Of a stretch of DNA of 64,000 nucleotides, positions 2,310 through 58,652 are shown piece by piece. Both the position numbers and the translations under genes were made by a program. Source of the DNA: Blastocatellia bacterium (GTDB lineage Bacteria > Acidobacteriota > Blastocatellia > RBC074). The stretch's first letter is position 1, and every line of letters begins with the position of its first letter. The notes beneath the pieces are model-generated. The model saw nothing but the letters and a program-made list of their open reading frames with translations. It ran no database searches and was not told the origin of the DNA. The stretch spans positions 3,723-67,722 of the forward strand of contig JAYTCQ010000354.1 in the NCBI GenBank assembly GCA_043736395.1, in the 5' to 3' direction.

Positions 2310-3737
2310 TTACCTTTTTTGTCCACTGTTCATCGCTACAGAAGGTTTTGCCTCTTGCGTGTAGTCAATAAAGCACGCCAGCATTTCGTCATACGTCGGG
2401 TCGCCCCAACGAACGGCTTTGGTTGGGTCAGGGTTGAATTTATTTTTCGCGGAATTATCAAACCAGCCTGTGACCAGAAAGGTTGTGCCTTTCGGAATCA
2501 TCAGCGGCTGCTTCAGCACATAGCTTGTCTGCCACGAAAAATCATAGCGCGGGACGTTCAGCAACATCTCTTTGCGGCCATCGGGATACGCGGCTTCGAT
2601 CTGCATCGCCGCGCCGCGAAAGTGCATGTGCGGCATGAGCGTCGTGAGCTTGATGTCGTTTGGAGCAGTCCAGCAGGCGCTCACTTGATGACGCTCTGCG
2701 CCCGGTGCAATTTTCATATACGCGTTGTAAATTAATTCTGTGCTGAGCAATTTGGCGGGCGGCGCTTTCGCAAAAACAAGGCCGACGCTCGAACGATCTG
2801 TCTGCACAGAACCGGCAGTCTTGTTGTAATGCACCTGAAAAATGAGCGTTGATCCGGCGGGGATTTTCTTTGCTACATTTGGTTCCATGACATCGGGGTT
2901 GCGACCTGGTGCCCACTCCGTCAAAAGGATAGAAATAGGGTCTCGCTTGCTGGTATTGAGCATTGTCCCGCCGCCACCGTTTGGCAACGCACATCCATCG
3001 TTGTAGACCGGAGCATCCATCTTTATGCGTCGCAGGAATCCGTCATCGTAACGAATGCTTTCTTTCGCTTGTTGCGCGCGGAGCTTCGCCAATTCTTCCT
3101 TGCTCATCTTGGGCGCGTCGGCAGGAGCAGGAGGACGAACGAAAACCACTACGTGATGCACGACTTTGCGATTGCCGGGACGCGCTTCGATCGCCCGCAC
3201 GTATTTATCTTCGGTGAAGCCGGTGGGAACTTCGAAGTATTGATATTCATCCGGCCCGCTGGCTTCGACCGTGTAAGGTTCCGGCATGCTCAGCACGACA
3301 TCAGGCTGACCAATGCCCCATCCTTCGACGAACTTCGGAACAGGCGGTAAATCTTTCGCTACGCCTTCGCCTGCGCCGCCCTCTACCCATGCGGTGATGG
3401 TGTCAATTTCTGATTGTGACAGACGGCGTTCATTTTTAAATTGTCCGAAATGCGGATCAGCATGCCAGGGCGGCATGGTGCGATTCACGACTTTTTCGCA
3501 GATGGATTTCGCCCACGGACGCGCGTCTTTGTAACTTAACACAGAGAACGGTGCGGCTTCGCCAGGACGATGACATTCAGCGCAATTTTTGAAAAAGATT
3601 GGCGCGATGTCTTTGTTGAAGGTAATGTTTTTTGCCGGTGCTTTTGTTCCGCTGGCGTGACTGGTATGCAAGATACTGAACACGGCAACGAACAATGACA
3701 AGGCGATGGTGGTGATGCGAATTGATTTCATAGCCAT
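2310..3737 (-). CDS. Secreted cytochrome c domain (CxxCH) fused to a copper type II ascorbate-dependent-monooxygenase-like (PHM/DBH fold) domain.
   Basis: Signal peptide; 'CAECH' heme-binding motif followed by '...MPPW' as in Planctomycete-type cytochrome c domains. C-terminal paired His motifs 'HHVVVF', 'HYN', 'MPHMHFRGAAM' resemble Cu2 monooxygenase copper ligands. Confidence 0.5.
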   Translation of the reverse strand: MAMKSIRITTIALSLFVAVFSILHTSHASGTKAPAKNITFNKDIAPIFFKNCAECHRPGEAAPFSVLSYKDARPWAKSICEKVVNRTMPPWHADPHFGQFKNERRLSQSEIDTITAWVEGGAGEGVAKDLPPVPKFVEGWGIGQPDVVLSMPEPYTVEASGPDEYQYFEVPTGFTEDKYVRAIEARPGNRKVVHHVVVFVRPPAPADAPKMSKEELAKLRAQQAKESIRYDDGFLRRIKMDAPVYNDGCALPNGGGGTMLNTSKRDPISILLTEWAPGRNPDVMEPNVAKKIPAGSTLIFQVHYNKTAGSVQTDRSSVGLVFAKAPPAKLLSTELIYNAYMKIAPGAERHQVSACWTAPNDIKLTTLMPHMHFRGAAMQIEAAYPDGRKEMLLNVPRYDFSWQTSYVLKQPLMIPKGTTFLVTGWFDNSAKNKFNPDPTKAVRWGDPTYDEMLACFIDYTQEAKPSVAMNSGQKR

Positions 3738-28922: not shown

Positions 28923-28944
28923 GCGAAAAAATAATAAGTAAAAA

Positions 28945-28985
28945 TAAAAGGCTGAAGATTTTATCTTCAGCCTTTTATTTTTATC
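28945..28985. terminator. Bidirectional rho-independent terminator (between the LolA-like gene and the end of the gvp cluster).
   Basis: aaaaGGCTGAAGATtttaTCTTCAGCCttttattttt. Confidence 0.65.
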
Positions 28986-29007: not shown

Positions 29008-29337
29008 TTATGCTGTTGCACTATTTTTTTGCAGAAGGGCTTCAAGCCTTTCCATGCGCTCCTCAATTTTCGTGAGAGTGCTCGCGTCGGCAGGCGGTAA
29101 TGATTTTTGCGCACTAAAAATAGGATGATTCACCCACCAGTCCATTCCCATTTCCTGGGCTTTATCAACGGAGCAAATCACCAGGCGAATTTGAATGGTA
29201 AGCAGTTCAACATCCGCCAAATTTACTTTTATGTCACCGGCAATCACGATGCCTTTGTCCAGAACACGTTCCAGAACATCAGCGAGAGTTGAACTGTTGA
29301 CGGCGTGCGTCATTGTACTATTTCGTGGTTGTATCAT
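29008..29337 (-). CDS. gvpJ: Gas vesicle protein, GvpA/J/M family (GvpJ-like with C-terminal extension).
   Basis: 'LADVLERVLDKGIVIAGDIKVNLADVELLTIQIRLVICSV' hallmark GvpA-family core; GGAG RBS. Confidence 0.8.
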   Translation of the reverse strand: MIQPRNSTMTHAVNSSTLADVLERVLDKGIVIAGDIKVNLADVELLTIQIRLVICSVDKAQEMGMDWWVNHPIFSAQKSLPPADASTLTKIEERMERLEALLQKNSATA

Positions 29338-29360: not shown

Positions 29361-29723
29361 CTAAAGCAATTTTCCGAGTGGTCCCAAATCCAGATTGAGG
29401 TCTTCTGGTTGTAATCCAAATTCCAAACGCAGCTTGTCAATTTCCTGCGTCTGCCGCATCAACGCTACGCCAAGGCGTTCAATACTTTCATCGTCTAATG
29501 TTTCCGATTCGATGCGCCGAATGGCTTGTCGTTCTAACAATTCATGCAAAAGCTTGATGATCGTTAACGCCAATCGTCCCAGCCCATTTTTCACATTTTT
29601 TTCGTCAAGTTCCAATCGTGAATTGCTGCCCAGACCCGAAAATAAATTCTTATCTGCCTGCAAAATACGAGCAAAGTCGCTAACAGTATCGGCGGTAGCA
29701 ATTGATGATATTTCAGAATTCAT
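29361..29723 (-). CDS. gvpK: Gas vesicle protein K.
   Basis: 'GLGRLALTIIKLLHELLERQAIRRIE' conserved GvpK core. Confidence 0.8.
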   Translation of the reverse strand: MNSEISSIATADTVSDFARILQADKNLFSGLGSNSRLELDEKNVKNGLGRLALTIIKLLHELLERQAIRRIESETLDDESIERLGVALMRQTQEIDKLRLEFGLQPEDLNLDLGPLGKLL

Positions 29724-29735
29724 TTGTCTTTTCCT

Positions 29736-29969
29736 TTACTCAATGGTTGATTGCACCTTTAAGGCTCGACCACCTTCAACTGAAGTCAGAACCAGTTGTA
29801 ATCCCAAGTAAATCAAATCTACATTCGCGACTGAAATTGTGACTTCGCCCACCACGACTGCGCCTTTATTCAATACACGATCAAGCACTTCGCACAGTGA
29901 AACATTTCCCTGCTCGTTCAGTGCTAAATTCGAAGCCAAAGCCGTTGTGTTGTAATTTTCAAAATTCAT
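29736..29969 (-). CDS. Small GvpA-family protein (GvpS/GvpM-like second structural homolog).
   Basis: 'SLCEVLDRVLNKGAVVVGEVTISVANVDLIYLGLQLVLTSVE'; its start abuts the ArsA-like stop codon. Confidence 0.7.
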   Translation of the reverse strand: MNFENYNTTALASNLALNEQGNVSLCEVLDRVLNKGAVVVGEVTISVANVDLIYLGLQLVLTSVEGGRALKVQSTIE

Positions 29970-31913
29970 TTATCGCCCCGCCGTTCGAACCATTTCGTAT
30001 TGATAAAGTGCTTTTCCCAATTCGCCAAGTTTTGACAAGCCGCGCAATTCACCCTGACGCGGAATGACGGCTTGCGGAATTCTTGGGAATGACACTTGAA
30101 ACTTCGTCTTAACAATCGCCTCGCGTGCGGCTAATGCATGGCACAAAGTGCAATCCTGTTGCGGTGTGGTCAGGTTAATAAAAATTCCTCCCACCGTGAT
30201 TTTCATTTGCTCGCACGATGCCAGCAAATCTCGTGTTTCGGCGTACGCCACTTCGGTTGGAATGCTCACGACAGAAATTCGCGCCTTGGTTCCATCAGCT
30301 AACAAAGTGCGTAATTTCTTAAGGTTTTTCGACATTTCTACTAATAACTGTGAGAGTCGCGGCAGGCGCAGCATGTTGCGATACTTCAGGAAAACACCAA
30401 AAAAAGCCTTCAACCATTGATCTATCAAAGTGGGCATTTCCAGCAAACGGATTAAATGTCCGGTAGGAGCCGTGTCGAGAACTACCACATCGTATTTCCC
30501 TGATTGATGCAGCTCAATCACGCGCAACAACGCCATCACTTCATCCAGTCCCGGCGGAGCCAGATCAATCATTCGTTCCATGACTTCGCGGTCAAAAGTG
30601 AAGTCGAGGTTTTGCATCGCAGCACTCAGGAATTTTTTCAGATCGTGGGCGTATTCTTTTTGCAAAACTTCAAATTCTGCATTCGCGTTAATTTCGAGAA
30701 CGCTCAAATTTGGGGTCACTGCTACGATTTCTGCGCCGATAGGTAGCGCAAAACAATCTGCCAATGAATGCGCCGGATCCGTCGAACATAGCAAAACTTT
30801 TTTGCCTTCTGTTTGTGCAAGTCTCATGGCTGTTGCACACGCCAGTGTAGTCTTTCCGACTCCGCCTTTCCCCGCAAAAAATAACAGGTTGGCTTTCGGC
30901 ACAGGTACGTTGCTGAAGGTGGGAAAATCATTAACCGAAGCCTTCACGCTCACCACCTCCGGCATCAATGTTAGCGGTTCCACGTCATCCCAAAAATGTT
31001 CGAGTGAATTCACTCCTCGCATTTCTTCCGGCTGCAATTCTGAGCGCCAGAAATTATATTCTTCATAACTTTGCAGCATTGCGCGAATTTCAGAATTTTG
31101 ACGCGCGTACGCTTCACGACAAGTCGCACAATCATTGTGTGGAAATAACTGATTGACGACGATCTCACTTACCGGGATTTGCAGGCGTTGTAAGGCCGTG
31201 AGTAAATCTTTTGTCTCATTGATGCTCAAAGCTTCTGCCAGCATTACTGGTACGAAGCGACACAGCTGTACATCACACAATAAGGCTTCCAGATTTTTGA
31301 CAGAGGAAGTGATCGTCAACAAAAATTGATCTAGTTCATCGCCGTAATAATTGCCACTGAACAATTTTTTCATGTAGCGATTTTTGGCTAACAGCGCATC
31401 CAGCATTCCTAACCAGCGATGCAATAATTCAGGCATTCCAAGCAATCGCAGCGTGTGCCCAGTTGGCGCAGTGTCTACAATCACGCAATCATAATTTTCA
31501 GCCGAAACCCATTCTGAGATTTCCAGAAATGCCATCAATTCATCTAAGCCAGGCAACGAAAGTTCCAGAAATTGATTGATGTCTGAATCGTCCAGAAACG
31601 TTCCGCGCTTGGCAATTTCGCGCAAATGTTCGGCGTGAAGTGCTTTGAATTTTGTCAGACATTCCTGTGCGTTGAGTTCAATGATCGTCAAATTTGACGG
31701 GATCATGCTCGCCTGTTCTCCCAATCCATCCATCAAAGAATGCGCTGGATCGGATGAAGCAATCAGGTATTTTTTTTCAGGAAAAGTTTTTGCGAGATAC
31801 AGCGCAGTCGCCAAAGCAGACGTAGTTTTCCCAACTCCACCTTTGCCACCAAAAAGCAGTAGGTGTAAATTTTGATCGTTGAGAAATGCAGGGCGCATTG
31901 GCTGATTAATCAT
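29970..31913 (-). CDS. Tandem two-domain ArsA/Get3-family P-loop ATPase embedded in the gvp cluster.
   Basis: Two halves, each with 'GGKGGVGKTT' deviant Walker A (LLLFGGKGGVGKTTSA; LLFFAGKGGVGKTTLA) and 'DTAPTGH' switch motifs. Each half carries a CxxC pair (DCATC; DCTLC) in the position of metal/client-binding Cys in Get3/ArsA. Confidence 0.8.
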   Translation of the reverse strand: MINQPMRPAFLNDQNLHLLLFGGKGGVGKTTSALATALYLAKTFPEKKYLIASSDPAHSLMDGLGEQASMIPSNLTIIELNAQECLTKFKALHAEHLREIAKRGTFLDDSDINQFLELSLPGLDELMAFLEISEWVSAENYDCVIVDTAPTGHTLRLLGMPELLHRWLGMLDALLAKNRYMKKLFSGNYYGDELDQFLLTITSSVKNLEALLCDVQLCRFVPVMLAEALSINETKDLLTALQRLQIPVSEIVVNQLFPHNDCATCREAYARQNSEIRAMLQSYEEYNFWRSELQPEEMRGVNSLEHFWDDVEPLTLMPEVVSVKASVNDFPTFSNVPVPKANLLFFAGKGGVGKTTLACATAMRLAQTEGKKVLLCSTDPAHSLADCFALPIGAEIVAVTPNLSVLEINANAEFEVLQKEYAHDLKKFLSAAMQNLDFTFDREVMERMIDLAPPGLDEVMALLRVIELHQSGKYDVVVLDTAPTGHLIRLLEMPTLIDQWLKAFFGVFLKYRNMLRLPRLSQLLVEMSKNLKKLRTLLADGTKARISVVSIPTEVAYAETRDLLASCEQMKITVGGIFINLTTPQQDCTLCHALAAREAIVKTKFQVSFPRIPQAVIPRQGELRGLSKLGELGKALYQYEMVRTAGR

Positions 31914-31931: not shown

Positions 31932-32333
31932 TCATTCTTCATCACTGTCATCTTCATCTTCTTCATTTTCTTCGTCGTCATCGTCTTCTACCTCTTCATC
32001 CTCTTCATCACTGTCGTCTTCGTCTTCATCGTCGTCCTCATCGTCATCGTCACCATCATCTTCGTCTTCGTCATCGTCGTCCTCTTCATCGCCCTCATCA
32101 TTCGCCGCAGACTCTTCCAATGCGCTCAATCGCTCTAACAATACTGCTTCCTGTTCATCAAATTCGTCTTCGGTGATTTGTCCTGTTTCGAGCATCATGT
32201 ACAGCTCGCTCAGCGCAGTAGTAATTTGCTCAGAGGCGTTGGTTATTTCCTGCTCTGCCGCATTGCGGATTTCTCCCAGCAGCCAAAAAAAGCCGTGCAT
32301 GGGAGCCAGAAAAATGTCATCAACTAAAAACAC
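31932..32333 (-). CDS. gvpG: Gas vesicle protein G with a ~55-residue poly-Asp/Glu C-terminal tail.
   Basis: 'FLAPMHGFFWLLGEI...ITEDEFDEQEAVLLERL' fits the GvpG pattern (LL.P..G..W.GE ... I.EEEF..E..LL). Predicted GTG start (alternative in-frame ATG 11 codons later). Tail 'DEGDEEDDDDEDEDDGDDDDEDDDEDEDDSDEEDEEVEDDDDEENEEDEDDSDEE'. Confidence 0.65.
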   Translation of the reverse strand: MFLVDDIFLAPMHGFFWLLGEIRNAAEQEITNASEQITTALSELYMMLETGQITEDEFDEQEAVLLERLSALEESAANDEGDEEDDDDEDEDDGDDDDEDDDEDEDDSDEEDEEVEDDDDEENEEDEDDSDEE

Positions 32334-32362: not shown

Positions 32363-33127
32363 CTAAAATTCCAGGGCGACTTCGACAAAGTTATACGGCG
32401 CCCACGGCCCGTTAAAATCAAAGGCAAAGTTGTCATCAAACAATTCCGCTGCCGCATAAACCTGTTGCTCAAAGTTTGCTAACGAAGACCGATCCACCAG
32501 GCAAACCAGATTCATCACTTCGCGTTCCGTCCGGCAACGATTCACTTTGATTTCCGCGCAGGAATTCGTGAGTGCGTCCTCGACCTTCTCCGTGAACTCT
32601 TCCCTATCACTCGCATGCAATTGCTCAAAGAGGCGTCCAACAGCCAATTTGTCATCCTGACGCGGTTCACCTTCGCCACTGAATAAACGATCCCGCGCAG
32701 CCAGTAATTCAGGATGTAAATTGACGAAATATTCAAAAATATTCGGCACGTCCCACGTGACGCGAACGCCCATTTCTACTTTGTCTGCCACGCGTTCTAA
32801 TTGCGAAGCGAGTGCCTCGGAATTTTTTGTGAGTACTTCTTCGACGGCTTCCTGTGAATTCGCAGCGACGCCGAAAGCCATTGGTAAAACGGACAAATTT
32901 TCAGCTAATAATTTTTTCAGGACTTCCTGATGTGCGGCGAGATTTTTTCGCTGCGGCAGGATTTTTTCGCCGGAAGAATCACTCACCACAGCGGCGAATT
33001 TGCCGTTGGAAATTGTGTAGACGTGCTGACCGTTTAGACCACAATTTCCTAATTCCAGGTGGTCTTGGGCGGCGATGACGGCGTAAAGATATTTAGAACT
33101 GCGAGCGGCGGCGGCTTTGACTGACAT
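32363..33127 (-). CDS. Gas vesicle protein GvpF/L family (paralog 1).
   Basis: 'KYLYAVIAA' N-terminus and C-terminal 'NGPWAPYNFV' hallmark of GvpF/L; start at internal ATG with GGAG. Confidence 0.8.
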   Translation of the reverse strand: MSVKAAAARSSKYLYAVIAAQDHLELGNCGLNGQHVYTISNGKFAAVVSDSSGEKILPQRKNLAAHQEVLKKLLAENLSVLPMAFGVAANSQEAVEEVLTKNSEALASQLERVADKVEMGVRVTWDVPNIFEYFVNLHPELLAARDRLFSGEGEPRQDDKLAVGRLFEQLHASDREEFTEKVEDALTNSCAEIKVNRCRTEREVMNLVCLVDRSSLANFEQQVYAAAELFDDNFAFDFNGPWAPYNFVEVALEF

Positions 33128-33291
33128 GGTTTTGGGTCTCCTGTAAAACCTGCCACACAAACGGTCAGAACAAAGCGAAAACAAGGAAGGAAAACTGAAT
33201 GAATCAAAAGTTGCTCTGTTACTGAATCGCGGTGGCTCGGCGAATTTGGGTTACTGCTACTAACAACAATTTCTGTTGTTACGATCAAAAA

Positions 33292-33506: not shown

Positions 33507-33830
33507 TTAGTATTTCAGCTTGAATGAATTATTTGCAGTGGCACTCACGCTTTTGGCGATTTGCTTGCTTCCTTCGACTGGAAGATCGTAATCGGCTGCC
33601 GCCAATTGTTTGAGGATGACAGCTTTTTCCGCATCAATTTCGCGGAAGCGTGTCCGCAATTCCTGCAATCGTTCCATCGCGCTGTCTTTTTCTTTGTTGC
33701 GACGGACTTTCTCCATTTCAAGTGCCGTCAATTTCATAAATGCTTTGTATGGACTAAAGCTACTTTCGTTACGATTGGAATGTGTACGAATGCTTTGTAA
33801 CCCGCGTAGCGTACTTTGACGTGATTTCAT
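33507..33830 (-). CDS. Hypothetical small coiled-coil protein inside the gvp cluster.
   Basis: Strong AGGAGG RBS; heptad-like 'MERLQELRTRFREIDAEKAVILKQL'. Confidence 0.45.
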   Translation of the reverse strand: MKSRQSTLRGLQSIRTHSNRNESSFSPYKAFMKLTALEMEKVRRNKEKDSAMERLQELRTRFREIDAEKAVILKQLAAADYDLPVEGSKQIAKSVSATANNSFKLKY

Positions 33831-33843
33831 TTCAGCTTTCCTC

Positions 33844-34800
33844 CTAACGACAAAATTTATGAATTAAAACATCAACTGTTTTGGGAGTAATGGTTTTCGA
33901 AGCTTTCTCGCCTTTGCCACCATCACGGCTTAGCACATCACGACAAACCCAACGGAACAATTCGTCATTGATCCGCGCATGCGAATCACGTGCAGCAATC
34001 ACGCGTGCAATCGCAATCGCAGCGCGAATTGTTGGATACGTTTGATCGTTACCGAGTGCTCGCAGTTCGTCTATGATGTTAATGATGCTGGTGGCGTCTT
34101 CGAGTTCAATGCCTGACTTCGCCATCGTGACAGCGATTTCTGTTTCGCGGTCATAATGTCCCAAATCAATGGTAATCATTCGATCTAACAACGCATCCTG
34201 CGTTTTATGGACACCGGCGTATTCTTCAGGATTTGAGGTGAAAATTGCGTGAAATTCTGGATGAACATTCATGTAGCCTTCGCCTGAGCGACGCAGCTTC
34301 GGCAAGTTCAAAATGCGCTCCGACAATACGCTGAGCAAAGCATTATTGGCTTCGGCTGGCGAGCGATTAAATTCATCGTAAATTAAAGTGTTACCATCTC
34401 GACAGGCCATCGTCAGGCGGCTGTCTACCCAATAACTTTTGACTTCATCCTGCGTTTTCACGACAGAATGAATAAAATTATCCACTAACGTAGAGCGACG
34501 ATAACCGGAGTCACGACCAATTAAATCAGCCGAACCGAATTCATCATCACCGTGAATCAGTGTGACCGGACGCGCTAATTGCGCGGCAACATGAAAAGCA
34601 AGCGTCGTCTTACCTGTTCCCGCCGGTCCGGCAAAATGTACCGGAAATCCAGCTTGCAAATAAGCGAGTGCTCGCTCAACGACGTGCGCAATTTGTGGTG
34701 TACTCACAAAACCTGAACTCGGTTCAAGTTGAAGATTTTCGTTCTCAGACTTCGTCCTTATCAAATCAGGAGAAGTTGCTGTAGAGGCGGATGCAGACAT
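33844..34800 (-). CDS. gvpN: Gas vesicle protein N (AAA+ ATPase of CbbQ/NirQ/GvpN family).
   Basis: Walker A 'GPAGTGKTT'; 'TLIYDEFNRS' Walker B region; length and order typical of GvpN. Confidence 0.85.
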   Translation of the reverse strand: MSASASTATSPDLIRTKSENENLQLEPSSGFVSTPQIAHVVERALAYLQAGFPVHFAGPAGTGKTTLAFHVAAQLARPVTLIHGDDEFGSADLIGRDSGYRRSTLVDNFIHSVVKTQDEVKSYWVDSRLTMACRDGNTLIYDEFNRSPAEANNALLSVLSERILNLPKLRRSGEGYMNVHPEFHAIFTSNPEEYAGVHKTQDALLDRMITIDLGHYDRETEIAVTMAKSGIELEDATSIINIIDELRALGNDQTYPTIRAAIAIARVIAARDSHARINDELFRWVCRDVLSRDGGKGEKASKTITPKTVDVLIHKFCR

Positions 34801-34855: not shown

Positions 34856-35605
34856 TTAGCCGGCTTTTGCGGCAGCCAATTCATGTTCAAATTCGCGGCG
34901 AAGCTTTGCGATAGTTTCGCCCTGAACATCTTCGATATGCTTGGAGACGACTTCAGCGGCCATTCTGCTGGCTTGTTCAGCGGCAGCGCGGCTAGCTTCT
35001 TCCAACCGCTTTCCAGCTTCGTTGGTTACGCGTTCGACGGCTTGCTCAACTTTGCGCGCTTTTTCAGCTCTGAGCACGGCATCAGCTTTCGCTTCTTCTA
35101 CAGCTTTCGAAGCTAACGTTGCTCTGGTTTCCGAAAGGGATTTTCCTTTAGTACGTGGCGCAGCGGCGGCAGCTTTGGCAACTGGCGCAGTTACAGCAAC
35201 TGGTCTGCTTGTGGCAGGCAAGGCAGGCTGATTCCACATCGCGCGCGCACCTGCCAGATCTTCCTGATTTTCTTCGCGGATGGCAGAAACTTCACTCTTC
35301 AATTCAGAGACAAATTCTTGCCGATCTTCTTTCGTAGTGACCGCCATTTCTGCGTGAGCAACTCGAAAGTCTTCCTGCATCGTCGCGACCTCACCAACGA
35401 GATTGGTGACGAATTCGACCCGCTCCGATTTTGATTTTTCAGCCATCTCGGCATGGTCAACACGAAAGCCTTCTTGCATCGTGACGACTTCTGCTTTTAA
35501 TTCCTGATTTTCAGCCGACAGTCTTTCGATTAACTCTCCGCGTTCGACACGCAAGTCGGCCATTTCTTCAACCAGCCGTTTCATATCATCGGTCAAGCGT
35601 CCCAT
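34856..35605 (-). CDS. GvpC-like gas-vesicle outer-layer protein candidate (33-residue tandem repeats plus Ala/Lys-rich coiled-coil tail).
   Basis: Two adjacent 33-aa repeats 'EVVTMQEGFRVDHAEMAEKSKSERVEFVTNLVG' / 'EVATMQEDFRVAHAEMAVTTKEDRQEFVSELKS'. Sits immediately downstream of gvpA, as gvpC does in cyanobacteria. Confidence 0.5.
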   Translation of the reverse strand: MGRLTDDMKRLVEEMADLRVERGELIERLSAENQELKAEVVTMQEGFRVDHAEMAEKSKSERVEFVTNLVGEVATMQEDFRVAHAEMAVTTKEDRQEFVSELKSEVSAIREENQEDLAGARAMWNQPALPATSRPVAVTAPVAKAAAAAPRTKGKSLSETRATLASKAVEEAKADAVLRAEKARKVEQAVERVTNEAGKRLEEASRAAAEQASRMAAEVVSKHIEDVQGETIAKLRREFEHELAAAKAG

Positions 35606-35733: not shown

Positions 35734-35952
35734 TTAAGCCGGTGCTGCTGCGCTGGAAGTTAATCCAATAGCTTCGGCGTACTTTAAATAAGTTTCGACC
35801 GAGGCAATCACGACACGTGCTTCAACTGACAGTAATTCAATACCGACGAGCGAGACCTTAACCCAAGCATCAATGACGATACCTTTATCAAGAATACGAT
35901 CTACGACTTCTGCCAGACTCGATGAATCCGTTGACTTCGCTATTTTAGCCAT
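35734..35952 (-). CDS. gvpA: Gas vesicle structural protein A.
   Basis: '[64 protein letters not shown]', near-canonical GvpA. Start at internal ATG with AAGGAG RBS; the ORF-track N-extension is rejected. Confidence 0.9.
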
Positions 35953-36145
35953 ATTTTCTCCTTTATGATTTTCATACTCCGGGTGGGAAAAGCTGAACAC
36001 ATCAGAAGGATGAGAAAGTCATCCCAACCACAGCTTGCTAAATCCTACTTGCAGATTTAGTGCCACAATCGGAAGGACTACAAAATATTTTTTCTGGGAG
36101 TTTTTTTGATAGCGTTGATAGACAAATAACTATTACTTCTATGTG

Positions 36146-36862
36146 CTATTTGAGTTTAGGCAGAAGCATCGCAGCAGGTAAATTTTCTGTCATCACAAAG
36201 TTGTAAGGAGGCCACGGCCCACTCGCTGAAAGCTTAACAGATTGCGGCACTATCAGGTGTCGCAACTTGTCATTCCAGGCTTCAATTTCCGTGCGTCGAA
36301 GCAAAAAATATTGCGAACATAACCAGCCATCTTCGAACCTTTTTACTTCTGTTTTTTGACGTTTGAATAACCCATCCAAAGGCGCACAGACCTCTGTCAT
36401 CATTGCCTGAAATTCGGTTGAAGGATCTTCGTAATGCCGCCGCCGTGCCGCCAGATATGCTCGACCTGAAGACACGGGTTCCGGTTCACTGACAACAATA
36501 TTCCCAATTGCTTGCGGTACAGAAATCAAAAATCGAAGCCCCATTTCAACACAATCTTCCAGTTCATCAAGGAGCGTTTCATACTGCGCCTGATGCTTCG
36601 TCAGGAAATTCATGAGTTGCGCTTCGTTATCAAACAGACAGCCGTACCGCATCGGAATCACTGTGTGTTCACGATGAAAATCTGCCACGACTTTTTCAAA
36701 TGATAATAATTGCTCAATGCTTGGAGTCGCAGAATTTTCACAGGCAGAAATAATCGCCGTCAGATTATTATTCGAGATAAAAAATACTTCTGTAGACACA
36801 GAATTCACGGAATGGATTTTCTTTTCAGAGTTGCGCAACACAGCGTAGAGCAGCAGTTTCAT
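36146..36862 (-). CDS. Gas vesicle protein GvpF/L family (paralog 2).
   Basis: 'MKLLLYAVLR' ... C-terminal 'SGPWPPYNFV'; ATGA overlap with the upstream paralog. Confidence 0.8.
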   Translation of the reverse strand: MKLLLYAVLRNSEKKIHSVNSVSTEVFFISNNNLTAIISACENSATPSIEQLLSFEKVVADFHREHTVIPMRYGCLFDNEAQLMNFLTKHQAQYETLLDELEDCVEMGLRFLISVPQAIGNIVVSEPEPVSSGRAYLAARRRHYEDPSTEFQAMMTEVCAPLDGLFKRQKTEVKRFEDGWLCSQYFLLRRTEIEAWNDKLRHLIVPQSVKLSASGPWPPYNFVMTENLPAAMLLPKLK

Positions 36863-37671
36863 GCACTTTGCTCCTTGGCTAAATTTGGAGAAAAACTATA
36901 CGGCGGCCACGCTCCGGACATCGTAAAAACAAAGCCTTTTTCTGCGTATTTCGAATTGATGCTATCAACGCGCAGTCGAAAATCTTCGCGAGATTCTTGT
37001 GGAATTAAAAATGCCCAATTCAAAATTGCTTCAAGTTCGTCGTCAGAATTCGTAACTTTTCGTGCTCGAAAATCAACGGCGGATTGACTCAGCTCCTGCG
37101 CAATTTGTACGCAGATTTCTTGTATCCATTGATTTAATTCCTGCTCTACCGCCGCCTTGATTTTTTGCTCTTGAAAATAGCGCAGCCCCGGAGAAATTGC
37201 GCCGAGCTGTTCGTCCTGTTCAGCTAATTTTTGATCCAACAATCGCTGTCTGGCTGCGACACGATTGATGCTTCCCTTGACTGAAAATTCCTGCTTGTTA
37301 TTGATGTGATGCAGGAATCCAAAAATTGTTCCGTGTTGTGTTTGAAGAAAATCTGTGACGCCGGAAGCCGTAGAAAATAACGTACCAAATCGCGCTGGTA
37401 AAACGGGAGCTTGACGCAGTTGCTCTTCGATGACTGCTTCGTGTTGCAAGGCTCGCGGAGCAATCCAGTTCAAATCTTTCATCAATTCTTCCGCTTCCGC
37501 ACCAATGAAATCAGTCAGTGGAACTTCGCTAACAATTGCGGTCAACGAATTGTATTGAAGAGCGAATAAAGGGCTGCCATCATCAAAGCCCACGCCTTGA
37601 ACTTCCGGCAGCTCTTTCGTCAGAGAAATACAAAAAAGATAAATTGCTTTGGAGGGTTGGTTGTTCGTCAT
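36859..37671 (-). CDS. Gas vesicle protein GvpF/L family (paralog 3).
   Basis: 'KAIYLFCISL' ... C-terminal 'SGAWPPYSFS'. Confidence 0.8.
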   Translation of the reverse strand: MTNNQPSKAIYLFCISLTKELPEVQGVGFDDGSPLFALQYNSLTAIVSEVPLTDFIGAEAEELMKDLNWIAPRALQHEAVIEEQLRQAPVLPARFGTLFSTASGVTDFLQTQHGTIFGFLHHINNKQEFSVKGSINRVAARQRLLDQKLAEQDEQLGAISPGLRYFQEQKIKAAVEQELNQWIQEICVQIAQELSQSAVDFRARKVTNSDDELEAILNWAFLIPQESREDFRLRVDSINSKYAEKGFVFTMSGAWPPYSFSPNLAKEQSA

Positions 37672-47403: not shown

Positions 47404-48057
47404 TTACTGTTTGAGCTGTGCCTGAATGTCATCCTTACTGGTTCCTTTTTTTACCCAGTTAGGAACTTCATTCAAGCGTTCGCTAAGGCCCAGAACAAAG
47501 GTGCAATTTGCATCGCCGCGCGCTACACATGAAATTTCATGTGCCGCTATTGCAGAATTACTGGCGTGTGAAAACATGCCCGCTAATGCACCTGCTGCCA
47601 AATGATCAATTGGCATTCCTTTGGCGTCGCGTCCGCTTTTGGCAAACACTTCCGCGAAGGGCGTATCCGAAACCTGAGCGTAAATCAAACCTTGTTTGAT
47701 GTTGTTCAGTTCAAAGCTCAACTTGCCCCAGCCTTGCGTTCCCCAGGCTTCAACCAGCGAAGCATGAACATGTGCGGTTGGTAATTCTTCCAACGCTGAA
47801 CCGTAATACGCACTCAGCTCTTTTTCGTAGCGCTGCATTTGTCGGCGTCCCCACCATTCGCCGCATTTGTAGAGCACAACCGGCCACGCCTGCCCGCATT
47901 CATCTTCGAGGCTTTCCAATAAGCCCAGCGTAAATTCAAACGGGAATGCCACCAGGCGCGTACCGCTGCGTGAAGTGATGACGCCTTTTCCAGCGTCTAA
48001 ATCAACGTAGTCAAGATGCGAAAAATAATTCGCTTTCATGGCTGTAGCCAGACTCAT
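47404..48057 (-). CDS. V4R (4-vinyl-reductase-like) domain protein, paralog A.
   Basis: C-terminal 'EISCVARGDANCTFVLG' matches the V4R 'E..C.A.GD..C.F' signature. Start at internal ATG with GGGAGGAA RBS. Paralog of 49234-49899 (the N-terminal 'KANYFSHLDYVDLDAGKG' aligns with 'KHNYYTREDFFNFASDKG'). Confidence 0.6.
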   Translation of the reverse strand: MSLATAMKANYFSHLDYVDLDAGKGVITSRSGTRLVAFPFEFTLGLLESLEDECGQAWPVVLYKCGEWWGRRQMQRYEKELSAYYGSALEELPTAHVHASLVEAWGTQGWGKLSFELNNIKQGLIYAQVSDTPFAEVFAKSGRDAKGMPIDHLAAGALAGMFSHASNSAIAAHEISCVARGDANCTFVLGLSERLNEVPNWVKKGTSKDDIQAQLKQ

Positions 48058-48077
48058 AACGTTTCCTCCCGTACAAA

Positions 48078-48581
48078 TTAATTGGATTGCCCTGCGGCTG
48101 CGGCCTGTTCTTCCGAACACAGCACATCAATCACGACACTGACATATTGATTGATCTCTTCTGCATCTTCGGCACTCATTTCCTGACGTACCAAATCCTG
48201 CACGGTTTCATAAGTGCTGCGGACAAAGTTCGTATCAATGTCCATGGACATGAAGATCGTTTTCAACCAATACAACAACTTTTGACGAAGCATTTCCGGA
48301 TCGCCATTGACCATCGCCAAGGCGCAGTACCGTAAAACCAGCGTCACATCACGCATACCTTTTTCGGCAGCTTGAGGATGTTTTTGCGGAAAGTCAGGGA
48401 ATTTTTCAAATGACTTATCCACCGTTGCCGCCACGATATTTTTTTCCTTCTCTTCCAATCGTTGCATGATGGCGAGGCGACGTTCATACGCACGTGCAGT
48501 CTCGATGATGGTGTTATTTTCTTCAGGGGTGAAGTACCGGCCTTCGGCACTTCGCATGATGTCAGCAATTTGTCTATTCAT
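48078..48581 (-). CDS. Phycobiliprotein-fold globin-like protein (phycobilisome-protein family homolog; BBAG-like).
   Basis: 'MNRQIADIMRSAEGRYFTPEENNTIIETARAYERRLAIMQRLEEKEKNIVAATVDKSFEKFPDF...MRDVTLVLRYCALAMVNGDPEMLRQ...SAEDAEEINQYVSVVIDVL' aligns along its whole length with allophycocyanin-alpha-type sequences ('ARYLSPGELDRIKSF...GERRLRIAQTL.ENRERIVKQA...LF.K.PD...CLRDLDYYLRLVTY...GD...SAEDAAEAGSYFDFVI'). Confidence 0.7.
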   Translation of the reverse strand: MNRQIADIMRSAEGRYFTPEENNTIIETARAYERRLAIMQRLEEKEKNIVAATVDKSFEKFPDFPQKHPQAAEKGMRDVTLVLRYCALAMVNGDPEMLRQKLLYWLKTIFMSMDIDTNFVRSTYETVQDLVRQEMSAEDAEEINQYVSVVIDVLCSEEQAAAAGQSN

Positions 48582-48598
48582 AGATGGCAAAGTCCTTT

Positions 48599-49213
48599 CT
48601 AGGAGCGAGTGTTTCCGCCGTCACTGACAAGAAATTCTTCCAGCAATCCGGCAATATTTAATCCATTTGTATTGATTGAAGGGCTAGGCCATTTGGTCTT
48701 AATTGACTCAAGTGTGTAGCCTTCCTGAGATTTCGATTCTGTCATTGCGGCTGGAGCAGGCGCTTCTTCCACACCATTTCCGCTCAGCCAAGCCAAAAGA
48801 TTTTTCCAGGGTTGCACGGCAAGGCTTAATTGAAGTGCAACACGAACGGTTGAGGTCTCAACATCAGTTGCAGTCGCGAGCGCCGGAGCTGCTACAATTT
48901 CTTCGACAGGTTCTTGATACCCCGACAGAAATTGAAGTGTATCTTTCCAGGGTCTGACCGCTAATGAAAGAGATTTATTATTGATTTTCTTGATGGCCAC
49001 ATCGGTCGCAGCCGCTGAAGAAGCTTCTATGCCAGGTGCAATATCTACACTCAAAGCATGTGCCGGAGCGCCCGCCAGAGCTGCTCCGTCGAGCGAATCA
49101 GATGATAGTGCGGCATCTTTGTTTTTCGCATTATTTTCAGCGGATTCATTACTGCCTTCGCCGACAAAATCTTGCAGGAATGAACCTAGTGTTTGCGTGG
49201 GAACTTTTTGCAT
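48599..49213 (-). CDS. Hypothetical protein with two ~33-aa internal repeats (L.LAV.PWK..L.FLSG).
   Basis: 'SLSLAVRPWKDTLQFLSGYQEPVEEIVAAPALA' / 'QLSLAVQPWKNLLAWLSGNGVEEAPAPAA'; strong GGAGGTGA RBS. Confidence 0.4.
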   Translation of the reverse strand: MQKVPTQTLGSFLQDFVGEGSNESAENNAKNKDAALSSDSLDGAALAGAPAHALSVDIAPGIEASSAAATDVAIKKINNKSLSLAVRPWKDTLQFLSGYQEPVEEIVAAPALATATDVETSTVRVALQLSLAVQPWKNLLAWLSGNGVEEAPAPAAMTESKSQEGYTLESIKTKWPSPSINTNGLNIAGLLEEFLVSDGGNTRS

Positions 49214-49233
49214 AATGAGTCTTCACCTCCGGT

Positions 49234-49899
49234 TCACTCTGAAATTTTTTCGATGATTTCGGTCGCGGAAGCGCCTTCACGCAGCCAGAATTCTGCCGCA
49301 TCAATACGATTGCCTGAACCAATAATGAATTTGCAGAAATCCTCGCCCATCGCGTAACACTGCACTTCGATGCCGGAGAGATCGCGCTGTGTCAAATACG
49401 TGAAGACACCTGCGAACATTCCTGCGTAAACGTGGCAAACTGGTTTGCCAACATTGCCCAGGCTTTTCGCAACGGCACTATCGAACAGGTCAATAAAAAT
49501 CATGCCTTGCTTGCGCTGCGAAGTGTTGACCTTCCAAGCTCCCCAGCCTTCAGCCTGTAACGGCCACCACCAGGTTTCCAGAAAGAAATTCGCGTTCATT
49601 TCGCTGAGCTTTTTCCCGAATTCCGCTTCAACCATTGGCACGAAGGTTTTCATGTCCTCCAAGCCCCAGCGAAATCCTGCCTTATACATAATCATCGCCG
49701 AAGCGTCGCCGACTTCTTCTTCCAATCCTTGCTGCAATCCAACGACGAAATCTTCTGTCGCCAGAAAAGTACGCAGACCAGCGCGTGTGTGCACAGTGCC
49801 TTTGTCAGAAGCAAAGTTGAAAAAATCTTCGCGGGTATAATAATTATGTTTGATCGGCTGCTGGCCGATGATTACTTCTTGAGCGGTCATTTCGATCAT
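49234..49899 (-). CDS. V4R domain protein, paralog B.
   Basis: C-terminal 'EVQCYAMGEDFCKFIIG' V4R signature; AAGGAG RBS before internal ATG (MIEMTAQEV). Confidence 0.6.
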   Translation of the reverse strand: MIEMTAQEVIIGQQPIKHNYYTREDFFNFASDKGTVHTRAGLRTFLATEDFVVGLQQGLEEEVGDASAMIMYKAGFRWGLEDMKTFVPMVEAEFGKKLSEMNANFFLETWWWPLQAEGWGAWKVNTSQRKQGMIFIDLFDSAVAKSLGNVGKPVCHVYAGMFAGVFTYLTQRDLSGIEVQCYAMGEDFCKFIIGSGNRIDAAEFWLREGASATEIIEKISE

Positions 49900-49942
49900 T
49901 TGCAAAACTCCTTTTGTTATCCACTAAAAAATGTGCGCGGGA

Positions 49943-50428
49943 TTACATAATGCGCTCAGACGCCTGCAACATTTCGAGCACATCCGTCTCGATATTTTTG
50001 AGCGACATGATCACACTGCGCGTAATGATTTTGCCCTGTGGAATCAAGGCGACGCCTGTCACCGGATGAATAATTGTTTCATCCGCACGGCGTCCGATTA
50101 ATGATTCCAGACTGGCGAGCGACTCCAGATAAATCCCTTGTGGGACTTCGACGACACAACCATCGGCAATGATTTTCGCCTGGCAGGCAAGCCGGGAAGC
50201 GGCGGTCGTGCCGGAAATAAGTGACAAGGTTGAGATTTCACGTGGCGTTTGTGGCGATAGCGAGCCATTCCCGTCCAGCACTTTAATGTGGCAGGTGGCA
50301 CATAATCCTTTGCCTCCGCAAACTGCTTTGACGCGACCCTGTGATTGCGCCAGTAACACAGAAATTACATTGGCGCGCGTGAGAACATCTATGTCTGTTC
50401 CAATTGGTTCGATACGGATATTTTTCAT
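49943..50428 (-). CDS. Plant-type [2Fe-2S] ferredoxin with ~70-aa C-terminal extension.
   Basis: 'CGGKGLCATCHIKV ... ACQAKI' Cys ligand pattern (C-x4-C-x2-C ... C); AGGAGG RBS; ATGA overlap with the upstream gene. Confidence 0.75.
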   Translation of the reverse strand: MKNIRIEPIGTDIDVLTRANVISVLLAQSQGRVKAVCGGKGLCATCHIKVLDGNGSLSPQTPREISTLSLISGTTAASRLACQAKIIADGCVVEVPQGIYLESLASLESLIGRRADETIIHPVTGVALIPQGKIITRSVIMSLKNIETDVLEMLQASERIM

Positions 50429-57442: not shown

Positions 57443-57892
57443 ATGCAAGCCATCATCTTCATTGGCATCCAAGCCTCCGGCAAGTCCACATTTTTTCAGC
57501 AACAATTTTTTCATACGCACCTTCGCCTCAATCTTGATATGCTCAATACGCGGCATCGAGAAGAGATTCTGCTTCGTGCTTGTCTGGAAGCAAAACAGCC
57601 TTTCGTGATTGACAATACCAACGTGACGCGTGAAGACCGCGCCAAATATATCAATGCCGCTAAAGACGTGGGCTTCAATGTGGTTGGCTATTATTTTCAA
57701 TCAAAATTGCAAGAGTCTATTGACCGCAACAGCAAGCGTTCAGGCAAGGCGTTGATTCCAGTAAAAGGAATTCTGGCGACACATCGAAAGTTGAAATTAC
57801 CGAATTACGATGAAGGATTCGATCAGCTATTTTACGTTTCGATCAATGATGTGGGAGAATTTATTGTAACGGAGTGGCGTAATGAAATTTGA
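57443..57892 (+). CDS. P-loop NTPase of polynucleotide-kinase/AAA_33 type.
   Basis: N-terminal Walker A 'GIQASGKST' six residues from the start, as in Pnk/Clp1-like kinases; 149 aa; overlaps the Thg1-like gene start. Confidence 0.55.
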   Translation: MQAIIFIGIQASGKSTFFQQQFFHTHLRLNLDMLNTRHREEILLRACLEAKQPFVIDNTNVTREDRAKYINAAKDVGFNVVGYYFQSKLQESIDRNSKRSGKALIPVKGILATHRKLKLPNYDEGFDQLFYVSINDVGEFIVTEWRNEI

Positions 57893-58652
57893 TGAATTAG
57901 ATGAAAAGATGCGTGCCTACGAAACGGCGTTTGATTTATGTGCTGTGCCAGGAATGTTTCTCGTAGCACGAATTGACGGGCGCAGCTTTACTCGCCTGAC
58001 GAAAGAAGTTCATAAGTTTGAGACTCCTTTTGATGTGCGAGTTCAGGATATGATGGTAGCGACGACGGAGCACCTGATGAATTGCGGGTTTCGATGTGTT
58101 TATGGATACACGCAGTCAGATGAAATTTCACTTTTATTTCATCCTGAAATTGATACGTTTGATCGTAAGCTCCGAAAATATGATTCGATTCTCGCAGGTG
58201 AAGCGAGTGCAAAATTTTCTTTATTGCTTGGTTCACACGCTGCTTTCGATTGCCGCATTTCGCAACTGCCAAATGAAAATTTAGTTCGTGATTATTTCCG
58301 TTGGCGCAATGAAGACGCGCATCGCAACGCACTCAACGGCTATTGTTATTGGCAACTCCGAAAGGACGGCGCAAGCGCAACGCAAGCAACCAAGCAGCTT
58401 AATAAAATGTCAGTTGCCGATAAAAACGAGTTGCTTTTTCAGTACGGCATTAATTTCAATGATGTTCCAAACTGGCAAAAGCGTGGAACCGGATTGTACT
58501 GGGAATCTTTCAGCAAAGCGGGGTTCAATCCCAAGACTGGTCAAGCCGTAATCGCAGAAAGGCGACGTATTAAAATTGATTATGAATTGCCGATGAAAGA
58601 TTCATACGGAGAATTTATTTTGCACTTGTTGTCTCAAACTTCTGAAGAATAA
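57882..58652 (+). CDS. tRNA(His) guanylyltransferase Thg1-like protein (TLP; 3'-5' nucleotidyltransferase).
   Basis: 'VARIDGRSFTRLTK ... PFD ... YTQSDEIS' matches the Thg1 family catalytic core (two-metal carboxylates in 'RIDGR' and 'SDE'). Confidence 0.75.
   Translation: MKFDELDEKMRAYETAFDLCAVPGMFLVARIDGRSFTRLTKEVHKFETPFDVRVQDMMVATTEHLMNCGFRCVYGYTQSDEISLLFHPEIDTFDRKLRKYDSILAGEASAKFSLLLGSHAAFDCRISQLPNENLVRDYFRWRNEDAHRNALNGYCYWQLRKDGASATQATKQLNKMSVADKNELLFQYGINFNDVPNWQKRGTGLYWESFSKAGFNPKTGQAVIAERRRIKIDYELPMKDSYGEFILHLLSQTSEE

Follow-up and report, generated by a model that had tools for sequence, protein, structure and literature searches.

A tandem Get3-like ATPase with paired CxxC motifs in a bacterial gas-vesicle operon and its probable role as an accessory factor

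What does a two-domain ATPase of the ArsA/Get3 type do inside an operon of gas-vesicle (gvp) genes? The question is raised by a gene of a Blastocatellia bacterium that lies on a 64,000-nucleotide stretch of contig JAYTCQ010000354.1 (GenBank assembly GCA_043736395.1; forward-strand positions 3,723 to 67,722). This whole stretch was analyzed; it is called the window here, and all coordinates refer to it. The gene joins two questions, namely, the role of bacterial Get3 homologues and the handling and insertion of the hydrophobic shell and nucleator proteins of gas vesicles. A previous reading of the DNA without database searches (the sequence-only reading) had proposed that the ATPase holds or targets GvpA-family proteins, a role that would follow from its fold and its gene neighborhood. 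The evidence presented below indicates that the protein is very probably a Get3-type accessory factor of gas-vesicle formation and not arsenic related.

Domain architecture of the tandem ATPase

The gene encodes a protein of 647 amino acids (aa) that Pfam, NCBIfam, AlphaFold2, and Foldseek identify as a tandem, fused pseudo-dimer of the Get3/ArsA fold. The N half covers approximately aa 1 to 333 and the C half approximately aa 334 to 647. The chain ends 11 residues past the second domain, without an alpha-crystallin fusion. The gene, its motifs, and its two immediate neighbors are located as follows.

29970..31913, minus strand: tandem ATPase, 647 aa
31821..31850, minus strand: P-loop 1, GGKGGVGKTT, aa 22-31 (from the translation)
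30846..30875, minus strand: P-loop 2, AGKGGVGKTT, aa 347-356 (from the translation)
31119..31130, minus strand: CxxC 1, C262-A-T-C265, N half (from the translation)
30141..30152, minus strand: CxxC 2, C588-T-L-C591, C half (from the translation)
31932..32333, minus strand: gvpG (PF05120, 59.6 bits), 18 nucleotides (nt) upstream of the ATPase gene
29736..29969, minus strand: small GvpA-family gene, 77 aa, GvpM/S-like (PF00741, E = 5e-17)

The Pfam family ArsA_ATPase (PF02374) matches the protein twice, at residues 18-309 and approximately 345-636, with 411 bits against a cut-off of 24.3 (E = 3.9e-123). The NCBIfam model GET3_arsA_TRC40 (TIGR00345) reaches 397 bits (cut-off, 135), marking the protein as a member of the superfamily. 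Two PF02374 stretches, with CxxC motifs at 262-265 and 588-591, bear out the earlier description of a two-domain ArsA/Get3-like ATPase carrying one such motif in each half. Its placement between gvpG and an abutting small GvpA-family gene is equally borne out by a direct reading of the junction: in the sequence ...CGA TAA ATG AAT..., the ATPase stop codon (29970-29972) is followed without a gap by the ATG of the small gvp gene (29967-29969).

The P-loop, the catalytic Asp in (S/T)DPAH, and the switch II motif DTAPTGH are present in both halves and are kept in 71 tandem homologues. In the N half, these comprise a P-loop 1 without any variation among the homologues, SSDPAHS (aa 53-59), and DTAPTGHTLRL (aa 147-157); in the C half, they comprise an also conserved P-loop 2, STDPAHS (aa 377-383), and DTAPTGHLIRL (aa 480-490). 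Both nucleotide sites thus look intact.

This nucleotide-binding core is also what the protein has in common with ParA/MinD-like ATPases of the SIMIBI class, namely, a deviant Walker A motif and a dimer-sandwich arrangement, and weak Pfam and NCBIfam matches to CbiA, ParA, and MinD were obtained. ParA-type ATPases position other bacterial organelles, and the protein could by analogy be an organizer that positions, spaces, or clusters vesicles or scaffolds their assembly. However, these matches are restricted to the P-loop region (residues ~343-424), whereas the full-length match of 411 bits is to ArsA/Get3 and includes the Get3-specific helical subdomain and the CxxC motifs. A fused pseudo-dimer would moreover be incapable of the monomer-dimer cycling seen in ParA/MinD, and we regard such an organizer as improbable.

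The ATPase is Get3-like and probably not arsenic related

A classical ArsA, which powers an arsenite efflux pump as its catalytic subunit, could also have come to lie within the gvp cluster by chance. The two-domain architecture would fit, database annotations read "arsenite-transporting ATPase," and ArsA structures lead the Foldseek matches. The AlphaFold2 model (predicted local distance difference test score [pLDDT] of 87; predicted template modeling score [pTM] of 0.87) was matched in the PDB by tandem ArsA over both domains (TMq, 0.6-0.69; closed ArsA, 0.69) and by single Get3 chains over each half (TMt, 0.75-0.81). Tandem ArsA ranked first because it is likewise two-domain, a length effect, and the comparison of the model confirms the fold without separating ArsA from Get3.

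Profile and sequence comparisons do separate the two. The protein fails the hidden Markov models (HMMs) that define ArsA, with 191.8 bits against a cut-off of 650 for the ArsA equivalog TIGR04291 and 200 bits against a cut-off of 800 for NF041417. Get3 of Methanothermobacter thermautotrophicus (3zq6) aligns end to end to each half (141.8 and 131.4 bits), and identities to Get3 (3zq6, 3ug6, and 2woj) amount to 26-30%. In contrast, Escherichia coli ArsA (1f48) is alignable only to the nucleotide-binding core, approximately the first 150 residues of each half. In that alignment, the metalloid-binding cysteines of ArsA are missing, with C113 standing opposite D450, C422 opposite G455, and the C172 region unaligned; the homologue alignment likewise contains no conserved Cys in the equivalent N-half region. 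The best sequence match in the PDB is Chlamydomonas ArsA1 (5zme; 188.6 bits), which we take to be a Get3-like factor that recognizes tail-anchored proteins.

In addition, a neighbor-joining tree of the separated halves was constructed, with ArsA proteins from annotated arsRDABC/arsDA operons and Get3 proteins from HMMER alignments. The ArsA halves of Klebsiella and Halobacterium form a clade of their own (bootstrap, 98) that includes no gvp-linked half. The gvp-linked N halves form one cluster and the C halves another, and the single-domain Get3 proteins are grouped with a bootstrap of 74. On this topology, the gvp-linked proteins would go back to a single ancestral fusion event, separate from the one that gave rise to ArsA, a reading that is only suggestive because the deep nodes of the tree have bootstraps below 60.

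The gene neighborhood agrees with this assignment. True ArsA genes belong to arsRDABC or arsDA operons, as those of Klebsiella and Halobacterium do. With Klebsiella ArsR/D/B/C and Halobacterium ArsD/R as queries, tblastn (E <= 1e-3) returned nothing in the 64-kb window, and at the same threshold no ArsR/D/B/C homologue was found in 80 related loci totaling 1.29 Mb, a search in which Acr3 was not among the reference queries. Pfam detected no ars family in the genes of the gvp operon (down to 77 aa) or in most other window open reading frames (ORFs) of at least 130 aa. The lack of arsenic-resistance neighbors noted in the sequence-only reading therefore extends well beyond this contig, and its Get3 analogy gains from the failed ArsA models and the separate ArsA clade. 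Given the HMM cut-offs, the cysteines, the clade, and the missing ars partners at the loci searched, a classical ArsA is so improbable that we reject it as effectively refuted. Judged by sequence, the ATPase is a member of the Get3/ArsA superfamily and not an ArsA, and it probably plays no role in arsenic resistance. The thousands of "arsenite-transporting ATPase" entries that databases hold for the clade of this ATPase would then be misnamed.

CxxC motifs and a putative shared metal site

Both CxxC motifs occupy the column of the zinc-binding CxxC of Get3, as seen in the structures 3zq6, 3ug6, 3ibg, and 2woo (two archaea and two fungi). The same column is without cysteines in Klebsiella and Halobacterium ArsA, in Chlamydomonas ArsA1, and in the Nostoc homologue. 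All four cysteines are invariant across 92 homologues of 50-57% identity, and the pairs are therefore not a product of chance. At greater distance, 56 of 71 complete tandem sequences, which share 31-54% identity with the window protein, carry both motifs; counted singly, C262 is found in 68, C265 and C588 in 63 each, and C591 in 57, with several of the seeming single losses being ORFs cut by contig ends.

The motifs also change together. In five Thermoanaerobaculia sequences (L058, L064, L068, L070, and L076), the N half has CxxD and the C half CxCD, and one planctomycete (L039) has lost both motifs. Such paired changes fit a single site with four ligands to which both halves contribute, in the manner of the Get3 dimer, and suggest that the two halves share one metal site. 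In Get3 dimers, the CxxC motifs bind one zinc ion at the hinge between the protomers, and the pairs of the window ATPase probably bind zinc in the same way.

A fixed place in one type of gvp operon

The ATPase gene lies within a long, densely packed gvp operon on the minus strand, closed by a terminator-like hairpin. The order of transcription is GvpH-like small heat-shock protein (sHsp), Cdc48-like AAA+ ATPase, two gvpF/L genes, gvpA, a 249-aa ORF, gvpN, a 107-aa ORF, gvpF/L, gvpG, the ATPase gene, the small gvp gene, gvpK, and a GvpJ-like gene. The remaining assigned features of the operon are as follows.

39899..40453, minus strand: small heat-shock (alpha-crystallin, GvpH-like) protein (PF00011, E = 1.6e-7)
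37748..39895, minus strand: Cdc48-like double AAA+ ATPase (CDC48_N, CDC48_2, and two AAA domains)
36146..37671, minus strand: two gvpF/L paralogues, 36146-36862 and 36859-37671 (PF06386, E = 3e-30 and 2e-51)
35734..36000, minus strand: gvpA, major shell protein (NF006874, 131.8 bits; cut-off, 100)
33844..34800, minus strand: gvpN, AAA+ (TIGR02640, 338 bits; cut-off, 267)
32363..33184, minus strand: gvpF/L, which opens the conserved sub-block (PF06386, E = 5.5e-62)
29361..29723, minus strand: gvpK (PF05121, E = 1.4e-29)
29008..29337, minus strand: GvpJ-like GvpA-family gene, 109 aa, last gene of the operon (PF00741, E = 1e-17; best NCBIfam match, halo_gas_GvpJ)
28939..28983, minus strand: terminator-like hairpin, a 20-bp stem followed by a T run, which ends the operon

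Homologues of the ATPase are numerous, with more than 7,900 in the protein database at E <= 1e-20. The 120 best matches are without exception full-length tandem proteins (626-724 aa), and the closest, apart from the protein's own entry, is 57% identical. The 80 related loci were obtained by scanning one genome per GTDB species. They stem from Acidobacteriota, Desulfobacterota, Verrucomicrobiota, Chloroflexota, Planctomycetota, Gemmatimonadota, and Methylomirabilota, as well as from Betaproteobacteria, Myxococcales, and archaea. At about 75 of them, gvp genes in the same orientation flank the ATPase gene on both sides, and the exceptions are mostly short contigs. A lack of conservation at other gvp loci had been named beforehand as refuting the proposed link; the opposite was found.

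The conserved order is gvpF/L-gvpG-ATPase-(gvpF/L)-small gvp-gvpK-gvpJ. Its commonest ATPase neighbor is gvpG (upstream at 52 loci), and the small gvp gene lies directly downstream at 26 loci and beyond an intervening gvpF/L at 27 more. In some Desulfobacterota (L026, L028, L032, L035, and L040), gvpG is replaced by a gene for an approximately 300-aa protein directly upstream of the ATPase. One type of gvp operon, spread over many phyla, contains the ATPase gene as a fixed internal component. This near-obligate place between gvpG and small gvp/gvpK/gvpJ yields a short, testable list of candidate clients, and it suggests a practical handle for expressing gvp clusters of the same type in foreign hosts.

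Candidate clients and a proposed mechanism

Each half retains the helical subdomain that makes up the client groove in Get3, with hydrophobic residues at periodic intervals. The helices past switch II are amphipathic in both halves, with hydrophobic positions kept among homologues; conserved residues are W167, K177, and R179 for the N half and W500 and L509-K510-Y511 for the C half. From switch II to the next strand, the N half aligns with 3zq6 and is only 7 residues shorter. These helices look like the hydrophobic groove expected of a Get3-type protein. Among the Gvp proteins, the Kyte-Doolittle maximum over 19 residues is 1.78 for GvpA, 1.73 for the small Gvp protein (aa 43-61), 1.45 for GvpG (N terminus, aa 1-19), and 1.40 for the GvpJ-like protein. 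GvpG combines a hydrophobic N-terminal helix with a long acidic tail.

Fold and gene neighborhood together lead us to propose that the ATPase is an ATP-gated, Get3-type chaperone or loader for hydrophobic Gvp proteins, a mechanism to which we assign about an even chance. Two Get3 protomers would have been fused into one chain dedicated to gas vesicles, with the four cysteines forming one intramolecular Zn(Cys)4 hinge. Upon ATP-bound closure, the two helical subdomains would build a composite hydrophobic groove that captures the hydrophobic segment of a newly made Gvp protein. GvpG could be captured by its N-terminal helix, and the small GvpA paralogues (M/S-like or J-like), or GvpA itself, by their hydrophobic core; these candidate clients were shortlisted for their hydrophobicity and gene adjacency. 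The ATPase would keep the client soluble, and ATP hydrolysis would release it at a nucleating or growing shell. Together with the GvpH-like sHsp, the Cdc48-like AAA+ ATPase, and GvpN, it probably forms a proteostasis set. In its most specific form, the proposal amounts to a GET-like pathway for a lipid-free, protein-only organelle, in which GvpG or a GvpM/S/J-type nucleator is loaded ATP dependently into the nascent shell; this version is tentative, and we lean against rather than toward it. If correct, the ATPase would be the first Get3 homologue of bacteria for which a client is defined, and it could be added to improve heterologous gas-vesicle expression.

Several observations weigh against this proposal. 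The helical region of the C half is 14 residues shorter than in archaeal Get3 (3zq6). None of the candidate Gvp clients is a classical tail-anchored protein, and the hydrophobic part of GvpA-family proteins forms a beta-hairpin in the shell, not a helix. A mirror-tree analysis, in which the distances among the ATPases were compared with those of each Gvp family, pointed to no particular Gvp partner: the Pearson correlations ranged from 0.57 to 0.91 (FL3, 0.91; GvpN, 0.89; small Gvp, 0.82; GvpG, 0.80; GvpA, 0.57), and the high values do not discriminate because the genes share one operon history. The leading rank of ArsA in Foldseek and the weak deep nodes of the tree, both described above, belong here as well. 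Finally, no gene of this kind is known to us from the model gvp clusters of Halobacterium, Bacillus megaterium, and Serratia, which nevertheless produce vesicles; this implies that the function of the ATPase is accessory or specific to one cluster type.

Alternatively, the protein could be a general, possibly redox-switched holdase that buffers the load of shell proteins, with no specific client and no delivery step. Oxidized Get3 loses its zinc and turns into an ATP-independent chaperone, and the CxxC pair is said, following work by Voth et al. in 2014, to be the redox-sensitive element of Get3. The GvpH-like sHsp and the Cdc48-like AAA+ ATPase are encoded in the same operon, and the same trio occurs at 27-28 of the 80 loci and on plasmid p4 of Nostoc sphaeroides. 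Bacterial Get3 homologues have also been viewed as possible general chaperones, not targeting factors (Farkas et al. 2019, PMC6593721). On the other hand, the position of the gene between gvpG and small gvp/gvpK/gvpJ is fixed across phyla and the groove helices are conserved at the sequence level, both of which suggest a specific partner and not generic buffering. We therefore consider a general holdase rather unlikely.

The Cdc48-like ATPase allows yet another explanation, in which the tandem ATPase serves shell recycling by taking over GvpA-family subunits that the unfoldase has extracted from collapsed or misassembled vesicles. The two are encoded in the same operon, and on Nostoc p4 the genes of their homologues adjoin: the gvp cluster closes there with the gene of an "ArsA family ATPase," and the AAA ATPase encoded immediately after it has 51% identity to the window Cdc48-like protein. 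However, a Cdc48-like gene is found within 10 kb of the ATPase at only 28 of the 80 related loci, and the gvpG-ATPase link is far more general. Recycling of subunits is itself hypothetical. This explanation appears quite improbable, and a Get3-type loader remains our preferred reading.

Other genes of the operon and the window

The pair of Cdc48-like ATPase and GvpH-like sHsp heads the gvp operon of the window and recurs at 27-28 of the 80 loci; we know of no described role for an unfoldase in a gas-vesicle operon. The sHsp scores 22.4 bits against PF17886 (ArsA_HSP20; cut-off, 22.5), and its orthologue at locus L001 additionally matches PF05455 (GvpH). An assignment as a specific "ArsA-type" alpha-crystallin was nevertheless rejected, as the HSP20, GvpH, and ArsA_HSP20 matches overlap within one Pfam clan. 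The approximately 300-aa protein of some Desulfobacterota has an alpha-crystallin-like C-terminal region, and its N-terminal 200 aa are without a Pfam match.

Two ORFs inside the operon are without a family match. The 107-aa ORF (33507-33830, minus strand), between gvpN and gvpF/L, occurs in the same position at 24 related loci. The 249-aa ORF (34856-35605, minus strand), after gvpA, is Ala/Glu rich with internally repeated segments, and its relatives at other loci range from 87 to 465 aa; it may be a GvpC-like outer-layer protein.

Upstream of the sHsp gene, at a distance of 2 nt and on the same strand, lies a 209-aa ORF (40456-41085, minus strand) without a Pfam match. Homologues with 33-39% identity over approximately 200 aa were found at the gvp loci L022, L028, L039, and L043, with further, incomplete matches where the contigs of L004 and L075 end, and the ORF may be an undescribed gvp-associated gene. 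Directly upstream of it follows an ORF of 1,178 aa (41100-44636, minus strand), also without a Pfam match, in the region of strongest AT skew (-0.29). Its product is rich in E, L, A, and Q and has the appearance of a long coiled coil with a globular N-terminal part of approximately 150 aa; none of the 80 related loci contains a match to it.

Further upstream of the gvp genes (44658-50428, minus strand), a group of genes was found that is unexpected outside cyanobacteria and that may represent a bilin-based light-sensing or regulatory module tied to buoyancy.

44658-45464, minus strand: ferredoxin-dependent bilin reductase
within 44658-50428, minus strand: Ser/Thr kinase
47404-48120 and 49234-49905, minus strand: two V4R-domain proteins
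48078-48590, minus strand: phycobilisome-family protein
49943-50428, minus strand: 2Fe-2S ferredoxin

Elsewhere in the window (57882-58652, plus strand), a gene for a Thg1-like tRNA-His guanylyltransferase, a family with a patchy distribution among bacteria, adjoins an AAA_33 kinase-like gene.

Comparison with known systems

The window ATPase shares with Get3/TRC40 (3zq6, 3ug6, and 2woj) the P-loop, the catalytic Asp, switch II, the amphipathic helices of a putative groove, and the CxxC column. Unlike Get3, which is a homodimer of single-domain chains, it is one 647-aa chain, a fused pseudo-dimer. Get3 delivers its clients to a membrane, whereas the likely destination here would be a lipid-free protein shell and the candidate clients are not tail anchored. 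Partners of the Get1/2 or Get4/5 type were not recognized among the genes of the gvp cluster, which are gvp, AAA+, sHsp, or unassigned genes.

ArsA, represented by that of E. coli R773 (1f48) and by plasmid-borne copies of Klebsiella and Halobacterium, has the tandem architecture and the fold in common with the window ATPase. It differs in lacking CxxC, in having three metalloid-binding cysteines instead, in its ars operons, and in its separate clade. Chlamydomonas reinhardtii ArsA1 (5zme) is likewise two-domain, but it is eukaryotic, without CxxC, and directed to a chloroplast membrane, with no link to gas vesicles. Proteins of the Get3d/All4481 type (3igf and 8egk) couple a Get3 fold to alpha-crystallin, which calls to mind the sHsp encoded in the window operon. 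However, Get3d is single-domain with its sHsp domain fused, and it aligns to the window ATPase with only 48.9 bits, in the P-loop region.

A closely similar class already described is Group 8 of Farkas, De Laurentiis, and Schwappach, which consists of bacterial double-domain Get3 homologues with a TRC40-insert/hydrophobic groove and CxxC, without an alpha-crystallin domain or Get1/2/4-binding residues (PMC6593721). That combination was described as unique in all domains of life and of "unclear" function; a general chaperone role was suggested, and gas vesicles were not mentioned (PMC6593721). The window ATPase has the double domain, CxxC in both domains, no alpha-crystallin fusion, and, in large part, a putative groove. 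Group 8 was defined on 17 sequences from Myxococcales and some Proteobacteria (PMC6593721), whereas the class considered here spans Acidobacteriota to archaea and is tied to gvp clusters. Bacterial tandem Get3 homologues with CxxC were thus known before the present protein.

The association with gas vesicles, which the sequence-only reading had called unreported, was in fact described by Castillo and Saier in 2010, who found ArsA homologues with two domains encoded in gvp operons that contained no ars genes; four phyla were represented, with an acidobacterium (Aba1) and Anabaena/Nostoc among the organisms (PMC2963123). Their clusters 4 and 6 consist of two-domain proteins of approximately 637-645 aa in gvp operons, accompanied by gvpF/L, G, J, K, M, N, and hsp20 (PMC2963123), the same situation as in the window, where a two-domain homologue lies inside a gvp operon without ars genes. 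In their proposal, these homologues energize a step in vesicle biogenesis other than the one served by GvpN (PMC2963123). Their frame is that of ArsA homologues energizing transport, and a Get3-type CxxC or chaperone mechanism is, as far as we are aware, not discussed there (PMC2963123). In the literature searched, which included few subscription journals, no paper was found that joins the gvp link to the tandem CxxC Get3 class, nor were experiments. The window gene adds a rather divergent member to a class known from earlier bioinformatic work, and the key idea advanced here goes one short step beyond published work.

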